Positions 17 through 13,749 of a stretch of DNA of 20,703 nucleotides are shown one piece after another. Origin of the DNA: Bdellovibrionota bacterium. Lineage in GTDB: Bacteria; Bdellovibrionota; UBA1018; UBA923. The stretch covers positions 1 to 20,703 of the forward strand of contig JBFMCE010000071.1 in NCBI GenBank assembly GCA_040754655.1, read 5' to 3'. The notes beneath the pieces are model-generated. The model was not told where the DNA came from and did no database searches. It saw nothing but the letters and a program-made list of their open reading frames with translations. Each line of letters starts with the position of its first letter. Position 1 is the stretch's first letter. The translations under genes and the position numbers were made by a program.

Positions 17-2359
17 TCAGTTGCAAACTTGATTTAAATAGTCAACAGATCTAATCAAAGAAAGTGCTTTTATTTCATAGACTTGGCTTGAATAGAGAGC
101 CTCTTCTCGGCCGGCCACCACGGCCCCGCCAAGAAGAGTCTCTTTCAGCTCTAAGGCTGAAAGTCGCGGGCACAAGCTTTTGAGCAGGGCCGCCGCACCA
201 GCGACGAAACCCGCCGCCAAGCCCGCATGGCTGCGAATCTCGGTGCGGTTTCGAGGAGTAGCCACCCGAATGTGCTCGCTCGGGGCCCAGAGGTCTACCT
301 TGCGCCCATGGTTTGAGGCGCCGTACTTCACCCGGCTTTGTAAATTTTTTTTATTTAATCCGCCCACGACTAGAAGGTTCTGAAAACTCTCACCCCACGC
401 TGCAGGGTAAAACGGTTTTCTCGCCAGGTCGAGGCCGCCATCACCAGCCGACGCCACAACCAATGCACCCGCTTGCTCTGCCAACCGAAGACCATCTTCA
501 AGCGCTTTCGAAGGCAGCGTCGTGGCCCAGCCAAGCACGATCACTTTCGCCTTTGATTTCACCGCGTACTCAAAACCAGAATAGATCGCCGCCGAGTTCG
601 TATTTCCGTACGGAGAAAACACCTTGATGGGAAGAAGAGTCACGTTTGGAGCGACTCCCAACGTGTCTTCCCCACCGCCTGCAATGACGCTTGCGATCTC
701 GGTGCCATGAGAATGGTCGTCAAACGGACGTTTATCATGTGAATAAAAATCAAACCCCGGAGCATCGAGCACTGAGTCCCAATACAAGTTCCGCCTGAGT
801 TCTCGGTGATTGTAATCAATGCCACTGTCGATCAACGCCACGATAGTGCCGCGAGAACCCAAGCAGCGCTCACTTACGCAGGCCTCTAAGTAACCTGGAT
901 GACCGATTGAGGCGTGCGCCCATGATTTTTTTGAAAGTTCAAGTGCGCGCTCCCTGGCCAAAGCCGCAAACTCGCCACCCTTATATTTTTGGTCGTATTG
1001 ATGGTAGCGGTAGATGCGGTATGGGAGAGTGACCAACTCCGTCACGCCCTTAAGGATGCGTGTCACAGTGCTTTCAATAAACCTCGCTAAGCCCGCTGCT
1101 ACCGGCAGATTCGCATCAAACCTTGCGACCCTATCCGCCGCCGCCTCACCTCGATTGGCGATACTCAAAGCCAAGCTCGCTTGAGCAAGGTTCGAAGGCG
1201 GCGTTTCGCCTGGCTCTAGGCTTACCAATTCGTCACCCGCGACCATCTGAGAAACTTCTCCTGACAGGAGCCGAAGCTTCGAGGTTTTCTGAAAAACCTG
1301 ATCCACCACGAAAACCGCCGCCTTCAGCTGTCGCCGTTTTTGAGTAGCATTGTAAAACCACTGGCCCGCTTGAACCCCAAAGTCGCTGCCAACCGAGGCG
1401 TACCAATCACCCCCGCATTGGCCAAAAAGACTCGCGACCAGAGGAACCCTCGACACAGTTTTCGCGATTTCTTTCGATGCGGCTTCGATCACCTGATCGA
1501 ACGCCTTGAGCAAGGCGGTCTTCTGCGCAAGATTCACCCCGATCTCGAAATCACCCGCGGGCTCGGCCACATGCGCGCTGAGATCGAAATAAAATCCACT
1601 GCCTTGCCCTGTGATGTGCTCTACTTCAAGCGCTCGATGGCGGTGGCGAAGTTTGACTTCAAGGCCTATTGAAGCGCGGTATTCAACATGTTTTAGAGAG
1701 GCTCCGACCCACAAGGCATCGAAGTTGAGCTCGTGCCCAAGCTCCAGGCCCGTATGCAACCCTCTGTCGGCATCGGCAAAAGTTCTTTCAAGCCCCGGAG
1801 CGCTTCGGCGCGACCCGCCGACCAAAAACTCATTGCGCGCCCGCGAATCCAAACCAGAGTTGTAAGGGTTCTCGGAACCTCTTCGAAACCCTGAGAATTC
1901 ACGACCCGCCCTGCTTCCGCTTGAAAATGCCAACTCATCAATCACAAGCTCAATGCGGGAACTGGCAATTCGGCCTCCTGAAAACAGACAAGGATCAGGC
2001 AGCGGTGCTGCTCCATCGCCAGAGCCTGAGCCTAAAGCAAGCGCGCTCGAAGCCAAAATTTGCTGTGGATTTAAAACAACGAATACACCTGCCCGGTTGA
2101 GCTCTTCGATCAAACGCATTCGTACGTTCTCGCCATACCAACGAAAAGGTTCTTTTGGATCAGGAAGCGAAATAAACCGCTCGGTGACAGGGGAGACTTC
2201 AACTGCGCGTTTCATCGTAGTCGTGGCGGTGGGCCTGGTTCCGGCTTGGGGCCTTTTCTTGCCAGCGGCGAAGAGTTCCTCCACATTCGATAATAGTAGA
2301 ATACCCGAGATCAGTATGAATGCTGGCCCCGGCCTCAAAGGCAGACACAAGAACTTCAC
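17..2359 (-). CDS. Exported CsgG/FlgT-like protein fused to a C-terminal subtilisin-family (S8) domain, probably catalytically inactive
   Basis: 780-aa ORF, GTG start with GGAG upstream and a hydrophobic signal-like N-terminus. The C-terminal ~290 aa have S8 motifs VALIDSGID, DDHSHGTEIASVIAG, GVAPNVTLLPIKVF, VVASAGD, VDLWAP and FVAGAAALL, but HAGLA replaces GTSMA. The N-terminal half resembles the neighbouring CsgG/FlgT-like protein (ASVGSDFGVQAGQWF...VVDQV...MVAGDEL). Confidence 0.85.
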   Translation of the reverse strand: MKFLCLPLRPGPAFILISGILLLSNVEELFAAGKKRPQAGTRPTATTTMKRAVEVSPVTERFISLPDPKEPFRWYGENVRMRLIEELNRAGVFVVLNPQQILASSALALGSGSGDGAAPLPDPCLFSGGRIASSRIELVIDELAFSSGSRAGREFSGFRRGSENPYNSGLDSRARNEFLVGGSRRSAPGLERTFADADRGLHTGLELGHELNFDALWVGASLKHVEYRASIGLEVKLRHRHRALEVEHITGQGSGFYFDLSAHVAEPAGDFEIGVNLAQKTALLKAFDQVIEAASKEIAKTVSRVPLVASLFGQCGGDWYASVGSDFGVQAGQWFYNATQKRRQLKAAVFVVDQVFQKTSKLRLLSGEVSQMVAGDELVSLEPGETPPSNLAQASLALSIANRGEAAADRVARFDANLPVAAGLARFIESTVTRILKGVTELVTLPYRIYRYHQYDQKYKGGEFAALARERALELSKKSWAHASIGHPGYLEACVSERCLGSRGTIVALIDSGIDYNHRELRRNLYWDSVLDAPGFDFYSHDKRPFDDHSHGTEIASVIAGGGEDTLGVAPNVTLLPIKVFSPYGNTNSAAIYSGFEYAVKSKAKVIVLGWATTLPSKALEDGLRLAEQAGALVVASAGDGGLDLARKPFYPAAWGESFQNLLVVGGLNKKNLQSRVKYGASNHGRKVDLWAPSEHIRVATPRNRTEIRSHAGLAAGFVAGAAALLKSLCPRLSALELKETLLGGAVVAGREEALYSSQVYEIKALSLIRSVDYLNQVCN

Positions 2360-2387
2360 GCCAAAACTCTCCGTGAAAAGTTGCGGC

Positions 2388-3320
2388 TCACTTCGGGCCT
2401 TCAGAATAATAGATCTTCACCTGATCGCCAGCGCGCACCGAGCGCAAGAGCCTTTGATCCGCATCGTCTCTCATCGCCGCGACACTTTGATCGTGCTGGG
2501 TTTCGTACACCAGGGCTTCGCCGATCCGCATGCTCGCGTTGTCATAGAGAGTGAATACATTGCCTGGTTTGATTTCATCGCGCGCGCCTGCGCCAAAGAA
2601 AATGCGTTTCAGGTCGTAATTGACCTTAGTCACCGTTGCACCCCAGTCCATGAAGAAATTGGTGTTCGGATCTTTGGCCATTTGATCAATGGCTTTGCGC
2701 ATGGCGGCCCGAAATACCTTCGACATGGGTGAGTTGAAGACAAAATCCGCTCCCGACTTGATATCCTTGAAATCAAGGCTCACTTCAAGCTTGCCGTTGC
2801 CAGTCAGAGCGCTCCCCTTCCCCACGGCTACGACCTCTTGGCGTTCGGTATCGATGATGTGAAAGTCGATGCCAAGAGACCCAATGGCAAAACTCAAGGT
2901 CCCTTCCGCACCCGACAAGACGCCACTAGCGAGATCACCTAAGCCCGGTTTGTACCCAAAGCGGATGTTTGCGCTCGTGCTGGTCGCCTCAAATGAGGTG
3001 ATGCCCCCGCGAAGCACGAATCGAGCAAGCGTGCCGTTGCCCTCGCCTGCCTGCGCGCTAACGCGAAATTTATTGGTTGCCTGAGTCACTTCGGTTCTTG
3101 CGAGCTCTGGCAGAAGCAGTCCCATGTCTACTCGTGTTTTCCCGTCTGGAAGCAGAAAGGGCGTATCGAGAAATCGGCCGATTGAAATCACGCGCGTAGG
3201 ATAAGCTTGCGTCACCGACGGCGGGGCAGGTTCCTTCCTCTTTTTTCCGAAGGCCAATGCAAGGCTTGGCGTTAAAACAAAGCAAAAGGCGGCCGCTACA
3301 ATCAATCTCATTTGTACCAT
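2388..3320 (-). CDS. CsgG/HfaB-like protein with FlgT C-terminal-like domain, exported
   Basis: The ORF runs from 3374, but ATG 3320 (GGAAGGG ~10 nt upstream) or ATG 3311 gives a typical signal peptide (MRLIVAAAFCFVLTPSLALA). It shows the CsgG/TolB-N-like pattern FVLRGGITSFE...LGIDFHIIDTERQEVVA...SPMSKVFRAAMRKAIDQM, then FlgT_C-like ATVTKV...IFFGAGARDEIKPGNVFTLY...IGEALV...VRAGDQV. Confidence 0.75.
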   Translation of the reverse strand: MVQMRLIVAAAFCFVLTPSLALAFGKKRKEPAPPSVTQAYPTRVISIGRFLDTPFLLPDGKTRVDMGLLLPELARTEVTQATNKFRVSAQAGEGNGTLARFVLRGGITSFEATSTSANIRFGYKPGLGDLASGVLSGAEGTLSFAIGSLGIDFHIIDTERQEVVAVGKGSALTGNGKLEVSLDFKDIKSGADFVFNSPMSKVFRAAMRKAIDQMAKDPNTNFFMDWGATVTKVNYDLKRIFFGAGARDEIKPGNVFTLYDNASMRIGEALVYETQHDQSVAAMRDDADQRLLRSVRAGDQVKIYYSEGPK

Positions 3321-3387
3321 CGTATAAAATCCCTTCCGTGAGAAACCCCGAAGCGCTCGTGGGTCAAACATCATGTTTGGAAGAATT

Positions 3388-5383: not shown

Positions 5384-6661
5384 ATGAACCAGACAACACC
5401 ACCAATTCACGTCGCAGGAGCAGAAGTTGCCGAGTTCGAGGTGCCCAAGATCTTGTACGTCGCGAGACTAGGCATCGCTTTGGGGATTTTCCTCACTGCA
5501 GCGCTTGGCGCGCTCGCCGCTGTCGGCTGGGGATGGCTTTCTGAAGGATTTTCTCCGGCAGTCGCCCTTTGGGGCGCAAGCATAGTCACCGTCGCGAGCG
5601 GTCTGAGCGTATCGTCTTTGAAGTCGAATCTCATCGACAAGTGCCTGGGACTCACGCGAAAGGACAAATCAATCGTATTTATTGGGGTAAAACGGGCCCT
5701 GAAAGTGAGTTTCGGGTTATTCTTGCTTGCGGCTCTAGGTTCTAGTTCAATCGCCTTGCTGATTCATAACATCTCGGCCTTTCCCTTGCCCTCTAAGCTC
5801 AACCGAACGCGCATCGAAGTGCGGTCCGCCAGCGCCGAAGAGAAACTCTGGCCGGTTTACTTCTGGGACTACGCCACCTTGATCGATCCCGCCGAGCTTG
5901 ATCGCTTCAATCTGATCGTGCCTTACGAAAAAGGCCCGCCCGAAAGGCTGCTCTCAAAAGTGTACTGGGAAAACCCCCAAACTCACTCTATTGAGCTCGA
6001 GCTTCACGGCAAAAGGCCTCGCGCCTATTCAACGGAGCTCGTCGCTCAGCTCTTCGCCTCGAATCAAACGCACCCACGGGACTGGTCCCTGGTCTGGAAA
6101 CTCTCAAAAGAAGCCGGGCTTTTTTCAGGCAGGACCCAAGCTGAGAGTTTGCACCTCATTCAACTCGAACAAGCGGGCCAACCCACAACCCACGCTATCG
6201 GCGTGCCCTGGACGCAAAATCCAAACGCAGAGCGCACGGGTGCCGGCCGCTTTTTCTTTTGGGGACCCGATGGCTCGGTCTTTCAAGTCAAATGCGCCCA
6301 GCCTTGCGGCTTAAGCCGCATCCTTGAGCTTGCGCAATTTGCCCCTGATCCCAAGGGTTCGCGCGCTCAACGTGTTTCATGGACTCAAGCGACACTTAAG
6401 AAGCTCTTGGGTCAGCTGCCAGAGGTGGTATCGAAAAAAGATGCCACCGCTCGCCGGCGCCATGAGACTTTATTGAACCTTTATCTCATCTCGCTCTTGA
6501 CGCTTGATCCCCGCGACCCGGAAGCTTTCTTTCACCTAGGAAAACTAGCCCGCAACCGAGAGACCCTTCTCTCAGCGATTCGCTATGGAAGAGACGTCGG
6601 AATGCAACAAGCGGCTCTTGTGGAACTCGAATCCATGCTCAACGCGCTCAAAGGCGACTGA
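5384..6661 (+). CDS. Hypothetical membrane protein (~3 N-terminal TM segments, soluble domain, C-terminal TPR-like helices)
   Basis: 425-aa ORF with hydrophobic stretches at about aa 24-52, 57-78 and 106-128; C-terminal LLTLDPRDPEAFFHLGKLA resembles a TPR helix pair. Start codon uncertain. Confidence 0.65.
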   Translation: MNQTTPPIHVAGAEVAEFEVPKILYVARLGIALGIFLTAALGALAAVGWGWLSEGFSPAVALWGASIVTVASGLSVSSLKSNLIDKCLGLTRKDKSIVFIGVKRALKVSFGLFLLAALGSSSIALLIHNISAFPLPSKLNRTRIEVRSASAEEKLWPVYFWDYATLIDPAELDRFNLIVPYEKGPPERLLSKVYWENPQTHSIELELHGKRPRAYSTELVAQLFASNQTHPRDWSLVWKLSKEAGLFSGRTQAESLHLIQLEQAGQPTTHAIGVPWTQNPNAERTGAGRFFFWGPDGSVFQVKCAQPCGLSRILELAQFAPDPKGSRAQRVSWTQATLKKLLGQLPEVVSKKDATARRRHETLLNLYLISLLTLDPRDPEAFFHLGKLARNRETLLSAIRYGRDVGMQQAALVELESMLNALKGD

Positions 6662-6725: not shown

Positions 6726-8501
6726 TCATGGCATCGCATAGCGGCCCTTGTAAAAACGCGCGGCGTCCATCATGATCAACGCGTCGAGTGCATACATCGG
6801 GCTCAAGCCCTGGTCAAAAACCAGGTACTTGTAGGCCTCGAGGATCGCCGGAATTTTTTCGGAAGCCACGGAAAGATTGGCCAATTGAGCTGCGGCAGCA
6901 TCGAGGCTTCCACCTGCAAACGCCTCAATTGCATTTTCTCGAATGGTGTAGGCCTCATTCAAATCGACGAAAAGCCCCGTGTCGGTGGTTAAAACGCCGT
7001 CATCAACGTAAATCCCTTTGTCGCGGAGCTTTAAAATGCCCTCCGCGAATTCTTCTTCTGTCATATACAGAAATTCGTTGTTTCCCAACATTGCAGGCTC
7101 GTACGTTTTTTCCAACACTTCTGAGCGCAGTTCAGTTTCGTCGCGTAAAGTCTCAGAAAACTCTTTTATGGCCTGCTGGGAATCCGTTCCTAAGGCGGAA
7201 TCAATGGCTTCAGCCACACCCAAAAGCTTTTTCTCAATGCCGCCGATCTGGCCTTCAAAAACGCTCTTAGACTTGCGCTGCGCAGGATCGACTCCGATCC
7301 GATCCGTAAAGTCAGGATGATCGCAAGAGATGTCATAAAACGGATCTAATTTCCACAACACCCGCTGTTTTGCCACCGCAGACGAAAACTCCTCAGCCAC
7401 GTTTTCGGCCGGATGAATTCTCGAAAAAGACTCGTAGTCCTCATCGTTGTTCAGAGCGGCCATCGCATGCGCGAGAGAGCCGTTGACAGAAAACGGGAAT
7501 CGCCGCGATTCATCGATGCCGAGGAATTTTTCCGCGTTCTGCAATTTGCGTTTTCCCGACTGGATCTCATAAATCACTTTCATCAAACATTCAGCGCCGG
7601 AATATTTGAGTTCAGCAAACCTGTCCCAAAGCCTGTTATTCTCGCCTTGCGCCATTAGAAAGTTCTTCGTCTTTTCTCTGGGATCTTCAGCTGCCGCCGC
7701 GCCACCCTTCTCGGCCACGGCCTTGCTGAGCATTTCCCTGACATCAACGGAGCCAAAGCTTCGAACCATCACATTGCAAGCCTTTTCGCCGTGAGTTCGC
7801 TCAAAGACCTTCCATGTATCGAGCCTATTCTTAGCGATTCGCGAATAAAGTTTGGGCTCTACAAAGAAGGTTTCGTACAGATGGAAGAAATGCGCCTGTT
7901 TTTCTTGCAATCGCTCAAGGTCAAAAGCTTCGCAATAGTCTTCATTCAAGGCATTGAATACCGCGACCTTCTGATTTCCCACTAAAGGATCGTAAAACGG
8001 GGACCGGGTCACTGCTGAACGCGTTTGGGCGTTAACCAAGATGTAATCCTCGATTTTCTCGGGCGCGTTGTTTTGAATCACGATCACGTCAAAGAAATCG
8101 CGAAACGCCTTCATCGACTCGTCTTCTCGTAAAGCGCGAAGTCCCCTGCTCAAACACTCGTATTGAAACACGGCCTTACCTACTTCGGCGGACTCCCGCT
8201 CAGAAAGAACTTGGCCCTGCCTGATGAGCGTCACGCGTTCTTGCAGCTGAAGGTTTGCTCGCATCAAGGTCGTCTCGAGATTGATCCCGTAGGGGTCTGA
8301 TTTCACGGCCGGAAGAGGAAGATCAGGCAAGCACACCCTGGGTTTGGAACTCGAGCATAAAGAAGGAGGCATAAGACGTTCGAGCTCAACCGACGGTTTG
8401 ACGACGAATCTTTCTTGCGCTTCCTGGCCGTCCCCCGCATGAACGATCGGCTCTTCGAATGCCAAGACAAGGCTCAGCAAAAACAAAATACCCTTAATCA
8501 T
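6726..8501 (-). CDS. Hypothetical exported protein, mostly helical
   Basis: 591-aa ORF with strong RBS (AGGGAGGG) and signal peptide MIKGILFLLSLVLA; no family recognised. Confidence 0.75.
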   Translation of the reverse strand: MIKGILFLLSLVLAFEEPIVHAGDGQEAQERFVVKPSVELERLMPPSLCSSSKPRVCLPDLPLPAVKSDPYGINLETTLMRANLQLQERVTLIRQGQVLSERESAEVGKAVFQYECLSRGLRALREDESMKAFRDFFDVIVIQNNAPEKIEDYILVNAQTRSAVTRSPFYDPLVGNQKVAVFNALNEDYCEAFDLERLQEKQAHFFHLYETFFVEPKLYSRIAKNRLDTWKVFERTHGEKACNVMVRSFGSVDVREMLSKAVAEKGGAAAAEDPREKTKNFLMAQGENNRLWDRFAELKYSGAECLMKVIYEIQSGKRKLQNAEKFLGIDESRRFPFSVNGSLAHAMAALNNDEDYESFSRIHPAENVAEEFSSAVAKQRVLWKLDPFYDISCDHPDFTDRIGVDPAQRKSKSVFEGQIGGIEKKLLGVAEAIDSALGTDSQQAIKEFSETLRDETELRSEVLEKTYEPAMLGNNEFLYMTEEEFAEGILKLRDKGIYVDDGVLTTDTGLFVDLNEAYTIRENAIEAFAGGSLDAAAAQLANLSVASEKIPAILEAYKYLVFDQGLSPMYALDALIMMDAARFYKGRYAMP

Positions 8502-8737
8502 CTACCCTCCCTTAAAGCCTGGTCTTTCGACAAACAAGCAGACCTTTGCCTCTACTGTGATTTGAGAGAGAGGTCCAGAAATTACAACGCGAGGCATTAG
8601 ATTACGGATTGCCCACCTGCGGGCATTTTCTACCCACTCTCAGCTACAATCCAACCTAAGCACCCTTATTTAATAGACTAAAAATGTCGAGTAATATGTT
8701 GTCAGATCTTATATACTTATATTGTGGGGACATTAGG

Positions 8738-9643
8738 GTGCGTAAGAGTAACCTAATTTATTTAATCGGGATTTGTGTGGGTCTTGGTGGCTTTGCGTCC
8801 GGATGTAAATCGCCAACTGACTCGACAGACGGCTCGTCTACGGCTTCTGGGGCAAGCTCGCGCTCGAGCACGACGTCGGGTTCGGGAGTTACCTCTTCAA
8901 CTAGTTCCATTTATGCATTCCAAGTCATCACGAAGGCAGGCTCGAGCACCGGTTCATTCGACGGAGCTTCCGTTCCAGCGGGCGGCGGCATCGCGGTTCG
9001 CGCCCAACGCATCTTCGCGCTAGACGGCGGGCTCATCTCATCCGCCAACACGCCGACCTGGTTCAGCGAATCCAGGGTTTTTCTGACCTCAACGCGAACG
9101 GCGGGCACTGCGAATCCGGCCGCACCTTCAACTTCGAATACGCCCTGCGCCTACTTCGACAGTTCGACAACCGATTACAACCCCGACACCAGCGGTTTTT
9201 ACACCATCGATGGCTACAATTCGACGACGACGACCAATGACATCGATCAGTGCGCGGGCGCCAATGCCGCTGAACTCAGCCGTCTCGGCATGTACATCAC
9301 CCTTGATCGCAGGTTCTTGGCTTCCGATGAAAAAATCAACGTCATCATCAAAGCAAAACCAATCGATGCGCCCAATACCGCTCCCACATCCACGAGTTGC
9401 GTCGTGGGCGGCAACTTCGACGCCTCGGCTTGCAGCAACCAGTACTTCGCCGTTTCATTGAGAAGCTCTCCGACAGCGGCGACGAGGCCGTATTACATCT
9501 TGTTCCCGTCGGCCAAGGCGCTTGATCTGCTTTCCGAGTCGGTGCTCATTCCGCTGAAAATTGATGCGAACTTCAATACGATTTCAATCGATCGCGTCAA
9601 GGGCGGGGCGGTGATTTACGGAGTAACGGTCATACGTTTGTGA
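8738..9643 (+). CDS. Putative lipoprotein with a Ser/Thr/Gly linker and an uncharacterised domain shared with the downstream gene
   Basis: ORF from 8684; the in-frame GTG at 8738 has GGGGA 7 nt upstream and gives MRKSNLIYLIGICVGLGGFASG-C (lipobox-like Cys codon 8804-8806), followed by an S/T-rich tether. Confidence 0.8.
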   Translation: MRKSNLIYLIGICVGLGGFASGCKSPTDSTDGSSTASGASSRSSTTSGSGVTSSTSSIYAFQVITKAGSSTGSFDGASVPAGGGIAVRAQRIFALDGGLISSANTPTWFSESRVFLTSTRTAGTANPAAPSTSNTPCAYFDSSTTDYNPDTSGFYTIDGYNSTTTTNDIDQCAGANAAELSRLGMYITLDRRFLASDEKINVIIKAKPIDAPNTAPTSTSCVVGGNFDASACSNQYFAVSLRSSPTAATRPYYILFPSAKALDLLSESVLIPLKIDANFNTISIDRVKGGAVIYGVTVIRL

Positions 9644-9657
9644 TGGAGAATTAAGAC

Positions 9658-12600
9658 GTGAACCTTTATATCGAGAAATACTGTATCTGTGGTTTTCTCG
9701 GGCTAGCTCTCTTGTTGAGCAGTTGCAAGGATTCGGCTCCCGTTCCGGTGGCCACTTTGGCCGAAAGCGCCAGATCCGGAGCTCGCGGACCCGCTGGCAG
9801 CTCATCCGCGCCTTCGGTGGAAGCGTTCACTTCGGCCAACTCGGTGAAGGTCGCCTTCAATAAGAAAAGTTTTTACAACAACCATTTTCCCAATTCGAGC
9901 GGATGCGCGGGCGACGCGAGAAAGTACTTCGACCCCATGACCGACCGTGAAGTGCCGGTCAAACCAGAGTGGCTGAAAAACATCGCCGTTGAACTCACAA
10001 ATAGCAACGCCCTCTATGGCCCCAGCCAAAGCTCGTCGTGTTCGCTCACCGGGGTCTCAGCTCCCCAAGCCGCGAACTGCGCAAGCTTTGATGACCTGCA
10101 ACCCACGACGGGTCGCGGTTCACGATCGATCCTGATCGGCGGCCAAGGCTGCGGAGATCCAAGCAGCTCGGGCTGCTATGCCGATGCCATGAACTATGAC
10201 GTTTGGGCCCTTTCCACGAGCGACATTTCAACTTCGATCAGTTGGTCAAAACAGACCACCTCTTTGGCGCTGACGAACCCGGTGACCGCCAACGTCTCTC
10301 GCAGCATCGCGTGGGCGGGCGGCGACTACGATCCTCTTCACGATCAATATTACCTCTATGGCGGAGTGAATTACGGCGTGGTGGGCGGAGTCGCTTCAAC
10401 GCGGGGTTTTTCAGATCAAATCATCAAGATCCAATTCGGCGCTGACGGATCTGCCGAAACTACGGCAACCATTCCAGTTCCCTCGAGCAGGCAATACTAC
10501 GCAGGTTGGGCAAAACCCGATGGCGCAAAAGCCTTCTACAGCGCACTCAGCGACCCCACTGCTGACGAAGCAGGCGCCTCGCAGTTCGCGCCTCGACCGC
10601 TTGCAGGCCCCACGTTTACTTTTGGTCTCCGCCGCGATGCCACTTTCAAATCGTACTGCAAAGAAGGAGACGTGCTCACCGGCAGTGGACCTGCCCAAAA
10701 TTGTGAGAGCTCGGAGTTTGGAAGCCTTGATCGCGCGCTTGTTGCTACAAACGAACACTCCGATTACTTCTTGCTCTTAGGCGGCTTGAAAAACTCAGAC
10801 GGACTTTTTTCAAACCGTGTTTACCTTTACAAGCCCCATGGCCTTTCAAACGATATCGGGGATGGCAACACCACGACCTTCGAAACCGGACGCGAGGGAG
10901 ACTGGACCCTCTTAAGCAACGTGACAAATCCCGCGCATTCGACCGACGTTTCAAACGAAGTCATGTCGATCGTCGACATCTCATACGATTCAAGCCAAAC
11001 CTACCCCTTTGTTCCTACGTTTGTCGGAGGCCAAAGGCCTGCGGCGCTTGGCGGCGATACTTTTCGAGGCTGGCTAGGAAGAGGTTTTCACCGCACGGTT
11101 TACGATCCGGCGATGAATCGATTCTATATTTTTGGAGGCCTTCAAAATGACGGAGCTTCTGCAGGCGCTCCAGTTTCAGCGGTCACCGGCGTGGGCGCTC
11201 CAGCCACTCCGGATCTCGCGGCAAATGACGTATGGATTTACGATCCTCCCGCTCTTGGGCGCAGACCCACGGCTGGATGTTTCACCCGGTTTACTCCTGA
11301 TCTTGAGACGCTTCCAGCCAATACCGGAAGCGGCACAAACCTCGGCGTCATGGGCGCATACTTGAATCTGGGCGTGAACCGCAACTACACTTCTGCTCCA
11401 TTCGTGTTCCCTCCGGGAGGATGCCTTCAACGCATCCAACACACGACCGCGCCTGAAGCCCGCTTCGAGCACTCGATGGCGTTTGATCGCGATCACCGCG
11501 CTATGGTTGTTTTTGGCGGTTGCAAAACCCCTAATCTGATCTCGGCCGCGACCGGATTGTTTGATCTCACCGGAGACCCCACCACGAGCTGCAACAGCTC
11601 TTCGGCCTTATTGAGCGATACTTGGCTTTACCTGCCTCCGACCACCACCGAGTTTGTCTCAAAAGATTATCGAACAACCGCAGTAAGTCCGTACAATGCA
11701 TCCACACTTTTAGCGAATGTCTTTGGAATTGATCCTTGGCTCGACCGACTTCCAATCTATAGCGCTTCGAACAATCCGTCGTATCCGGCCCTCACTCAGC
11801 CCGAGTCTCATCAAGTGCTCGGCACTTGGGTTCGCATGTATCCGCCCGGTGATAAACCCAGCCCACGCGTCGGAGGCTCGCTGGTTTACGACCGAGGCCG
11901 CGGAAAATTTTATCTCTTCGGGGGCTACGGGTGCACGAACACTTCCTGCACGGGAAGCCCCACGACTCAAGCGCTCAATGACCTCTGGGAATACACTCCT
12001 CCTGAGATCGAGTCCGAGTGCGATCGCAGCTCTGGCGTTTGCATCAGAGCCGACGGCGCTTATTCATATGGTTCATGGAGGCAGATCCGCGCAAACAACG
12101 TCGCTTCAAACGGATTGCAGCCCTCGGTCAGGCGCGGCGCCACCATGGCTTACGCTCAACCGACATTCTCTTACGGCGATGATTTTTACACCGTGACCGA
12201 CACCGCGTGTTTCAATCAAGGACCGATCTCAACCGGCGACAGCGCCGTGAATAAGAAGCACGTCGGCGCCATCTATATTGACGTCGATCGAAATGAACTC
12301 GACTCAAGCGAGAACTTGCTTGTGCACCTGAGGCTTCTGCCATTCGATGAAAATACGAGGTTGCCGGCGCTCTACAACAACAACACCACATACACGACCT
12401 TTGATGACACCGATGCGGCGTCGACAACCGACTCCGCAAAGATCCACGTCCAATTGCTTTCGAGCGCCGTGAGGTTCATCGACCAGATCTTCAGCTTGAT
12501 CCAACCTCGGTACCATGAGTTCCTCTCAGGCACCCCGATCGTAGCCGACAGCTTCACCTATATTGCAGGCGCTAATGGACAGATCACTGAAAAACAGATC

Positions 12601-12699
12601 CTCATTCCCCTCAAGATCGACTCCTCGATCAACTTAATCAAGATCGAGCGTATCGAGGGATCAGTTAAATTTTATGAAATGACCGTATCGAAATTTTAA
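9658..12699 (+). CDS. Large putative lipoprotein with a six-blade Kelch-type beta-propeller
   Basis: 1013 aa, GTG start with GGAG at 9645-9648, lipobox LLSS-C. Kelch signatures (hydrophobic-GG...Y/W): SILIGG, YYLYGG, FLLLGG, FYIFGG...NDVWIYD, MVVFGG...DTWLY and FYLFGG...NDLWEY. Confidence 0.88.
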   Translation: MNLYIEKYCICGFLGLALLLSSCKDSAPVPVATLAESARSGARGPAGSSSAPSVEAFTSANSVKVAFNKKSFYNNHFPNSSGCAGDARKYFDPMTDREVPVKPEWLKNIAVELTNSNALYGPSQSSSCSLTGVSAPQAANCASFDDLQPTTGRGSRSILIGGQGCGDPSSSGCYADAMNYDVWALSTSDISTSISWSKQTTSLALTNPVTANVSRSIAWAGGDYDPLHDQYYLYGGVNYGVVGGVASTRGFSDQIIKIQFGADGSAETTATIPVPSSRQYYAGWAKPDGAKAFYSALSDPTADEAGASQFAPRPLAGPTFTFGLRRDATFKSYCKEGDVLTGSGPAQNCESSEFGSLDRALVATNEHSDYFLLLGGLKNSDGLFSNRVYLYKPHGLSNDIGDGNTTTFETGREGDWTLLSNVTNPAHSTDVSNEVMSIVDISYDSSQTYPFVPTFVGGQRPAALGGDTFRGWLGRGFHRTVYDPAMNRFYIFGGLQNDGASAGAPVSAVTGVGAPATPDLAANDVWIYDPPALGRRPTAGCFTRFTPDLETLPANTGSGTNLGVMGAYLNLGVNRNYTSAPFVFPPGGCLQRIQHTTAPEARFEHSMAFDRDHRAMVVFGGCKTPNLISAATGLFDLTGDPTTSCNSSSALLSDTWLYLPPTTTEFVSKDYRTTAVSPYNASTLLANVFGIDPWLDRLPIYSASNNPSYPALTQPESHQVLGTWVRMYPPGDKPSPRVGGSLVYDRGRGKFYLFGGYGCTNTSCTGSPTTQALNDLWEYTPPEIESECDRSSGVCIRADGAYSYGSWRQIRANNVASNGLQPSVRRGATMAYAQPTFSYGDDFYTVTDTACFNQGPISTGDSAVNKKHVGAIYIDVDRNELDSSENLLVHLRLLPFDENTRLPALYNNNTTYTTFDDTDAASTTDSAKIHVQLLSSAVRFIDQIFSLIQPRYHEFLSGTPIVADSFTYIAGANGQITEKQILIPLKIDSSINLIKIERIEGSVKFYEMTVSKF

Positions 12700-13461: not shown

Positions 13462-13749
13462 ATGTCACGAAAAAATAAATTTGATTTACGCCATCTCGTT
13501 CATTCCGGATTCATCAAAGACGGTGAGACGCTTTTCTTCGTCAGCGATCCCGCGAAAAAAGTCGTTGTGACCAAACAACCCAATGGCGACTTCAAAGTGA
13601 AGCTCGACGATGAGTTGATCACCGTGCACGCAGCCGCCCAGAAGTTCTTAGGCCAAGAGCCACCCGACCACGCGTCTCGTTGGTTGCGCAACGCCTCTGG
13701 TCAAACGCTTTACCAACTTTGGCAGGATGAATTCCAAGAAGCGGCTTAA
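13462..13749 (+). CDS. Stand-alone RAMA-like (restriction enzyme adenine methylase-associated) domain protein
   Basis: 95 aa, RBS AGGGGG. The pattern LRHLVHSGFIKDGETL...V...NGDF...AAA...W....GQTLYQL resembles RAMA domains. The CDS call is solid; the family call is tentative. Confidence 0.6.
   Translation: MSRKNKFDLRHLVHSGFIKDGETLFFVSDPAKKVVVTKQPNGDFKVKLDDELITVHAAAQKFLGQEPPDHASRWLRNASGQTLYQLWQDEFQEAA

Follow-up and report, generated by a model that had tools for sequence, protein, structure and literature searches.

The window considered here is a contig of 20,703 nucleotides (nt) from a Bdellovibrionota bacterium (GTDB lineage Bacteria; Bdellovibrionota; UBA1018; UBA923; NCBI GenBank assembly GCA_040754655.1, contig JBFMCE010000071.1, positions 1 to 20,703 of the forward strand), and it carries two adjacent genes, A and B, that encode lipoproteins built on the same domain, which is whole in A but interrupted by a Kelch propeller in B. 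Both open reading frames (ORFs) were recovered where an earlier note on this sequence had placed them, separated by a gap of 14 nt that contains GGAG, and their parts are as follows (aa, amino acids; pLDDT, predicted local distance difference test):

8738..9643, plus strand: gene A, lipoprotein of 301 aa with the intact jelly-roll scaffold, GTG start at 8738
8738..8806, plus strand: signal peptide and lipobox Cys23 of A (from the sequence; Cys23 in at least 90% of 40 homologues)
8807..8908, plus strand: flexible Ser/Thr-rich tether of A (sequence; mean pLDDT about 45-55)
8909..9160, plus strand: N-half of the A scaffold, ending in CAYFD, with the invariant C137 (conservation, model, profiles)
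9161..9193, plus strand: 11-residue loop of A (residues 142-152), counterpart of the insertion site in B (joint from CAYFD to GFYT)
9194..9640, plus strand: C-half of the A scaffold (alignment to B, model)
9374..9436, plus strand: A-specific Cys221-Cys232 lid (residues 213-233), main predicted contact with B (interface mapped from a relative's pair)
9658..12699, plus strand: gene B, lipoprotein of 1013 aa, scaffold split by the Kelch insert
9658..9726, plus strand: signal peptide and lipobox Cys23 of B (LSS-C; sequence)
9835..10092, plus strand: N-half of the B scaffold (residues 60-145), ending in CASFD (family profiles, insert-free relatives)
10093..12183, plus strand: insert of B, 697 aa (residues 146-842), a single Kelch propeller of six blades, long-looped and containing 12 Cys
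12184..12696, plus strand: C-half of the B scaffold (residues 843-1013), its sheet being the predicted docking site of A

The earlier note had claimed that the small lipoprotein is co-linear with both ends of the large one and that the propeller sits in the CAYFD-GFYT loop, and both claims were borne out: A and B share one domain, and the insert joins CASFD to FYTV where the corresponding joint of A, CAYFD to GFYT, is only 11 residues long. With the insert spliced out, as had been proposed as a check, B aligned to A with a score of 131 (60 of 184 positions identical), against a maximum of 70 among 1000 shuffles. The C-halves (A 154-301 and B 843-1013) match pairwise (BLASTP E 2e-8, 45/174 identical, none of 1000 shuffles as good). 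Because the pairwise match of the N-halves is weak (BLASTP E 0.48, with 21 of 1000 shuffles equally good), their relationship could be established only with homologues, through family profiles (HHalign 95.6%, E 1.1e-8) and through the comparison of the A family (58 proteins) with 22 naturally insert-free B proteins (HHalign 99.6%, E 1.8e-24, 281 columns). The two cysteines that flank the loop are invariant in both families (C137 and C172 in A, and their equivalents in B), and a disulfide between them may clamp it. Beyond A and B, no further paralogue of the scaffold was found in the source genome.

The distribution of the pair was followed with profiles across the phylum. The scaffold profile matched in 66 of 401 genomes (in a scan that was loose at first look, with five candidates scored per genome), 65 of them in the window's order, and the sole match among 309 genomes outside the order is full of stop codons and not credible. 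Within the order, the profile of A matched in 76 of 116 genomes and in 48 of the 67 high-quality ones. The homologues are labelled as Bacteriovoracia, Oligoflexia, Deltaproteobacteria and Bdellovibrionota metagenome-assembled genomes, and two of them (P0083, P0218) as Bdellovibrionota bacterium FG-1, which the accessible part of its description places in the order and class UBA1018 (Bdellonasia) as an uncultured, vibrioid organism that has a Kil system and is predicted to live as a predator (PMC13200544). In a set of 61 loci (60 fetched around scaffold hits, plus the window), A directly precedes B in 54 of the 55 loci holding both, a conserved pairing that the earlier note had asked for; four B genes have no A, and each of these begins at the end of a contig. 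In a FastTree phylogeny A and B fall into two distinct clades that mirror each other in family structure, so their duplication predates the spread of the order, and since many relatives have a B without insert, the suggested sequence of duplication followed by insertion is supported. Extra copies were seen as a tandem A-A-B (L081), as solo A genes (L064, L127) and as two four-gene operons in one genome (G374; L082, L083).

The notion of a two-subunit system held for the pairing of A with B but not for its completeness, as the pair is one half of a four-gene lipoprotein module. Downstream, X1 (~660 aa) follows in 43 of the 61 loci and X2 (~800 aa) in 41; both are Cys-rich with lipobox-like starts and are paralogues of each other (98.6%, E 9e-16), and neither has a family match in Pfam, NCBIfam, PHROGs or the PDB sequences (an Atlas search with X2 returned nothing usable). 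In the window's family and in family f7 they are unlinked from A-B, and in the source genome they lie on contig C23 (G000:C23:20314-24428, or L091:8312-12411, minus strand, as genes of 600-900 aa). X2 is present in 97 of the 116 genomes of the order and in none of the 309 other genomes of the phylum. Of the 79 genomes with the scaffold, 77 also have X2 (the remaining two are 72% and 82% complete); X2 occurs without the scaffold in 20 genomes of the order and is missing together with it in 17, counts that treat kin as independent. Several X2-only loci are ordered RDD-domain gene, X1, X2, with A-B cleanly missing. With X2 near-universal wherever the scaffold occurs, and A-B cleanly absent from several X2-only loci, X1-X2 is probably the core of the module, to which A-B seems to be an optional addition.

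Both A and B have a signal peptide, a lipobox and a +1 cysteine at residue 23 (ASG-C in A, LSS-C in B), followed by a Ser/Thr-rich linker. A crude lipobox pattern was found in 46/57 A, 42/60 B, 33/43 X1 and 38/41 X2 ORFs, the misses including ORFs cut by contig ends or mis-started, and no match in any of the four has Asp at +2. Under the sorting rule of Escherichia coli, a lipoprotein without +2 Asp is compatible with outer-membrane sorting. We infer that A and B would be lipidated, sorted to the outer membrane and exposed on the surface.

By sequence the scaffold belongs to no characterized family: A and intact B proteins had no match in Pfam, NCBIfam or PHROGs, neither matches the profile of a named carbohydrate-binding module (CBM) family, and a 58-row profile of A found nothing under E 0.4 among the PDB sequences. 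The model of A, built from a 40-row alignment, is a single beta-sandwich (residues 58-301) with strands from both halves (pLDDT 79, predicted template modelling score, pTM, 0.73). The structure search that the earlier note had called for placed it among CBM-like jelly rolls. With Foldseek nothing in the PDB reached E 0.001 (a single viral match was poor, TM 0.16), and in a wide search CBMs came out best (8wc1, Z 9.8, root-mean-square deviation (rmsd) 3.1, 133 residues aligned; 8x8h, Z 9.5), with Z of at least 8 reached by 4 of 48,161 chains. The next matches were CBM35/36/22, reelin, Eph and gingipain adhesin domains, nearly all top rows being of this fold class, and an Atlas search returned only leads below 0.9, with CBM clusters nearest among the named ones. 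The modelled scaffold thus falls in the galactose-binding/CBM-like jelly-roll fold class, which does not fix its function. It shares the beta-sandwich with these domains over residues 57-301 of A, but differs from them in sequence (8-16% identity, no Pfam or PDB sequence match), in length (~245 residues versus 120-170), in forming two paralogues of a predicted dimer and in a loop that carries whole domains. The proposed stalk-plus-tip arrangement found no echo in the models, which give a globular jelly roll in place of a stalk.

The model of B is weaker (pLDDT 61, pTM 0.70) and has low confidence at both junctions (pLDDT < 50 at 113-153 and 835-870), so co-folding of the split halves is not directly seen in the window's own B. 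The insert (model residues 149-835) matches KLHL12 (Z 27.1, rmsd 2.2, 289 aligned) and, with six GG motifs and a Pfam Kelch_4 hit over the cut-off, is a Kelch propeller. It shares the six GG blades with KLHL12, KEAP1, KLHDC2/3 and the bacterial NanM/YjhT, and differs from them in its 697 residues (with long, Cys-containing loops) and in being nested within the domain of a bacterial lipoprotein instead of standing at a terminus. Galactose oxidase and other AA5 members also combine a jelly roll with Kelch blades, in tandem in one secreted chain, with seven blades and a Cys-Tyr/His/His/Tyr site. This domain pairing, together with the presence of NanM/YjhT among the structural matches of the insert (Z 19.1), could suggest that B acts as an enzyme at the surface or in the periplasm, comparable to galactose oxidase or the NanM mutarotase, with a catalytic propeller and jelly rolls acting as CBMs. 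Against such an enzyme, which we hold to be very improbable, the propeller of B is nested and six-bladed and keeps a single His (H478) at 90% conservation (20 homologues), too few for a copper radical site of the AA5 type, its best structural matches are non-catalytic six-bladed Kelch domains, and it is dispensable and replaceable by RCC1 or repeat domains in relatives.

Homologues with a different insert or none at the same loop, as the earlier note had anticipated, were found across the order. Every insert starts after C-x-x-F-D and ends before Y-Y-x-x-D-x-x-C, a fixed junction, between which the loop was seen in the following states: 7-43 aa (all f4 loci, f2, f10 and some of f3); a Kelch insert of 602-761 aa (the window's family and f7); a long Kelch insert of 994-1258 aa (f3, f6, f8, f9), which, to judge from 11 GG motifs in two examples, probably forms two propellers; an RCC1 propeller of ~611 aa (L061; Pfam RCC1 E 9.5e-42) that bears a MopE-type metal motif and stands in a normal context, before X1 and X2; 416 aa resembling a delta-60/SBBP-like propeller, a weak match below the cut-offs (P0211); and three 110-aa repeats (P0107), the same repeat being found in the fragment P0210. 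P0211 and P0107 come from the sequence library, without genomic context. Repeat and propeller folds commonly bind ligands. No domain-size insert was ever found in the loop of A in 57 copies (292-500 aa), and non-Kelch inserts are rare in B, since all 34 longer B forms that were sought out were Kelch and 20 further loci yielded no new insert type. In the B-scaffold tree seven changes of insert state are needed, two of them forced by starred branches, and P0107 is sister to a long-Kelch protein (99/95). A tree of A+X1+X2 (29 four-gene loci, with near-duplicates and L045 left out and the window's family absent) needs four changes, three of them forced, and rejects a single clade of long-Kelch forms (approximately unbiased test, p-AU 1.5e-13). 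One gain and at least two losses, a presumed direction of change, would be the simplest reading. Between short and long Kelch inserts no colinear homology was found, but only matches of single blades. The pair had been described as a propeller display system, a view that needs correction, since B may lack the propeller or carry another domain in its place and the pair does not depend on it. In a 530-aa fragment of a B homologue of the window's family (P0074), the Kelch insert itself seems to bear a ~150-aa beta domain (CBM-like by eye). Another entry (P0063), in which the N-part of B is fused to a fragment of cytochrome oxidase subunit I, is probably an assembly chimera and was left out of the alignments.

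Association of A with B through the shared scaffold, also proposed by the earlier note, was predicted for an insert-free relative's pair (L066 of genome G275; alignments of 58 rows for A and 60 for B), with an interaction prediction score from aligned errors (ipSAE) of 0.88 against 0.00 for the best control, at least 89% of contacts agreeing between runs and partner pLDDT of at least 84. Among solved pairs 116 of 157 reached the mark used for this score, as did 2 of 215 mismatched ones; with our own alignments this mark is roughly applicable. No similar complex was found in the PDB by sequence. Mapped to the window, the contact covers residues 213-233 (the lid), 241-257 and 268-276 of A, and 888-901, 971-982, 1003-1013 and 839-843 of B; because the last of these is the foot of the insertion loop, the insert would leave the dimer at the edge of the interface. 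The predicted interface is asymmetric, with the lid of A, in which C221, G225, F227 and C232 are invariant (40 homologues), set against the sheet of B. As this geometry could extend, the jelly rolls might instead stack lid-to-sheet (A on B, possibly onward to X1/X2) into a structural coat or short fibre, with the insert as a shield from phages or grazers. A jelly-roll endospore appendage protein (8pdz) is among the weak Foldseek rows (E 0.013), and repeated gain, loss and swap of an exposed domain would fit an arms race. We regard a coat as distinctly unlikely, since A and B each retain their own lipid anchor, inserts are conserved within families, and, as B lacks the lid of A, stacking would stop at a single step if no other surface took part.

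Upstream of A, the relatives share a promoter-like motif, T[CA]A[AG]-N16-[GA][CT]CGATA[AG], which was detected in 17/45 regions in sense and 1/45 in antisense orientation (> 10 bits, leave-one-out; 12 of the 57 A genes were dropped because the upstream region was short or masked or the Cys was not located, and four f4 sites are from near-identical kin). Control regions gave 1/54 (B), 3/43 (X1), 1/41 (X2), 0/24 (RluA-like), 0/16 (RDD) and 1/19 (motA), and no sigma54 enrichment was seen upstream of A (0/45). The motif fits the attack-phase consensus of Bdellovibrio bacteriovorus, TTAAG-N16-CCGATA, given in the accessible part of the report for 92 of 140 attack-phase promoters (PMC3627812). The source genome itself has FliA (over the cut-off), and at the window locus no sigma70-like site was found and terminator-like sites were at chance level. 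The best upstream candidate in the window is the following:

8666..8693, plus strand: degenerate FliA (sigma28)-like site, TTAT-N16-GTCGAGTA, 3.0 bits, with 12 of 20 shuffles as good

Because FliA also controls flagellar genes, the motif supports expression in a free-swimming stage and not predation specifically. The four lipoproteins could be a flagellar accessory (an outer-membrane ring or sheath) co-regulated with late flagellar genes, the insert decorating it or sensing. Apart from the FliA-type promoter in relatives, this is favoured by motA/motB-like genes standing divergently beside the operon in 19 of 61 loci (labels by eye) and by the presence of flagellins and FliA in all five genomes tested. 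However, flagellated genomes without the module exist (in genus g36, FlgI is found in 8 of 9 genomes but X2 in none, which excludes an essential flagellar role only), several loci that retain mot genes show a clean absence of A-B from the interval between the RDD gene and X1, and the operon neighbours in f4 are non-flagellar; a flagellar role is in our judgement unlikely. Besides genus g36, genomes G230, G145 and G057 also have no X2 match though flagellar genes are present, and together these lineages offer a natural group for comparison. The absence of FlgI in G189 was dropped as evidence on this question, as this genome has flagellins and FliA. G403, also of family f10, likewise combines flagellins and FliA with no FlgI match, and in both genomes the flagellum may lack a standard P-ring or the gene may have been missed.

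Two known surface systems invite comparison. The mosaic adhesive trimer (MAT) fibres of B. bacteriovorus are, in the part of the report available, trimeric fibres with many members and variable binding parts, one of which binds prey glycans (PMC10769870). As far as that part goes, the logic of a variable tip on a predator-type surface protein is shared, whereas A-B would be a heterodimer of lipoproteins, encoded mostly in single copy and with its insert placed internally, that did not turn up in the other Bdellovibrionota orders sampled, and both models show a globular jelly roll and propeller in place of a fibre. The Kil/Tad pilus of Myxococcus xanthus carries, according to the available part of its description, interchangeable Tip complexes of prepilin-processed minor pilins (PMC12075869); these are likewise small operons of paralogous subunits with predicted assembly and exposed variable domains, but A and B carry lipoboxes and lack a pilin helix, and the conserved neighbours in the 61 loci include no tad genes. 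In the source genome, genes for CpaF-like ATPases adjoin one that is secretin-like and one that is TadB-like (names by eye). Since five X2-lacking genomes that were tested retain CpaF-like ATPases, with no scaffold match, the module does not track the Tad ATPase.

Taken together, we propose that A and B are lipid-anchored, disulfide-rich envelope proteins that would form a 1:1 heterodimer through their shared jelly roll, with the cysteine-stapled lid and one edge strand of A docking on the sheet of B. A would be the constant partner; B would act as carrier, accommodating a whole foreign domain, here the Kelch propeller, in the loop that separates its two conserved cysteine motifs. The dimer may be an optional addition that binds to X1-X2; it is most likely displayed on the cell surface in the free-swimming stage and would bind an outside ligand through its exchangeable tip. 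Plausibly this ligand is the surface of prey or of a substrate, and the insert would determine or broaden what is bound. For an envelope-anchored and probably surface-exposed heterodimer of this kind, tied to X1-X2, we see the chances as even. A more far-reaching version, which we offer only tentatively and think doubtful, holds that the four proteins are a previously undescribed order-specific surface apparatus, with X1-X2 as platform and A-B as a socket for propellers, that acts as the attack-phase prey-recognition tip in place of the Bdellovibrio fibres, the plugged-in domain defining the target.

A number of observations weigh against the proposed heterodimer and its role. The complex was folded for the G275 pair and not for the window's, with which it shares 10/36 and 11/47 identical interface residues, and the slightly higher conservation of the interface in the window's family (0.77 v 0.71 and 0.72 v 0.67) is not significant (p 0.15 and 0.19). 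Fold Z-scores of 8-10 show a fold class and not sugar binding, and the B-only tree does not reject a single origin or clade of the long Kelch inserts (p-AU 0.13). Many genomes keep the A-B pair with an insert-free B, and 37 of the 116 genomes of the order have no scaffold match. The proteins are mostly single-copy and well conserved (43-53% identity for full-length B in the window's family), unlike expanded prey-recognition repertoires. The window's own FliA-like site is not significant, though its spacing is right and its position matches the clear site of the relatives; FliA also drives flagellar genes, and the operon often adjoins motA/motB. Predation in this order is itself predicted from genomes only.

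Other genes of the window were also inspected. On the minus strand (17-3374) lie genes for an exported protein of 328 aa and for one of 780 aa that ends in a subtilase domain, a pair kept next to motA/motB in 14-15 loci, in which CsgG/FlgT-like segments were seen by eye and Pfam and PDB sequence searches gave no support. A 425-aa membrane protein without family match (5384-6661) takes the position directly upstream of A in relatives, a site held by an RDD-domain gene in f3 loci. Between this gene and A, an exported 591-aa orphan (6726-8501, minus strand) was found in this genome only among the fetched loci, in a stretch of lower GC content (0.48 at 7001-8000), and its insertion may have changed the promoter context of A. 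Further downstream, a 95-aa stand-alone RAMA-like domain (13462-13749; E 3e-6, under the cut-off) is conserved at this position, shortly after B, in 7 loci belonging to f1 and f7.

No published description of these proteins, including any Bdellovibrionota Kelch lipoprotein, was found in the freely accessible articles searched. New are the scaffold and X families, the operon and the socket loop, whereas the folds of A and of the inserts were already known. Four protein families now stand without a library match, of which X1 and X2 deserve a study of their own. With inserts that range from < 10 to ~1260 residues and belong to at least four unrelated kinds, the loop of B clearly exemplifies how domains can be gained, lost and exchanged in nature, time and again, at a single site, and the B scaffold is a candidate for display purposes. 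Prey recognition by predatory bacteria is a standing problem, and these proteins lend themselves to expression and testing with no need for a culture of the organism. They offer a lineage-specific, structurally tractable handle on how a large, uncultured, predator-like order meets its surroundings.

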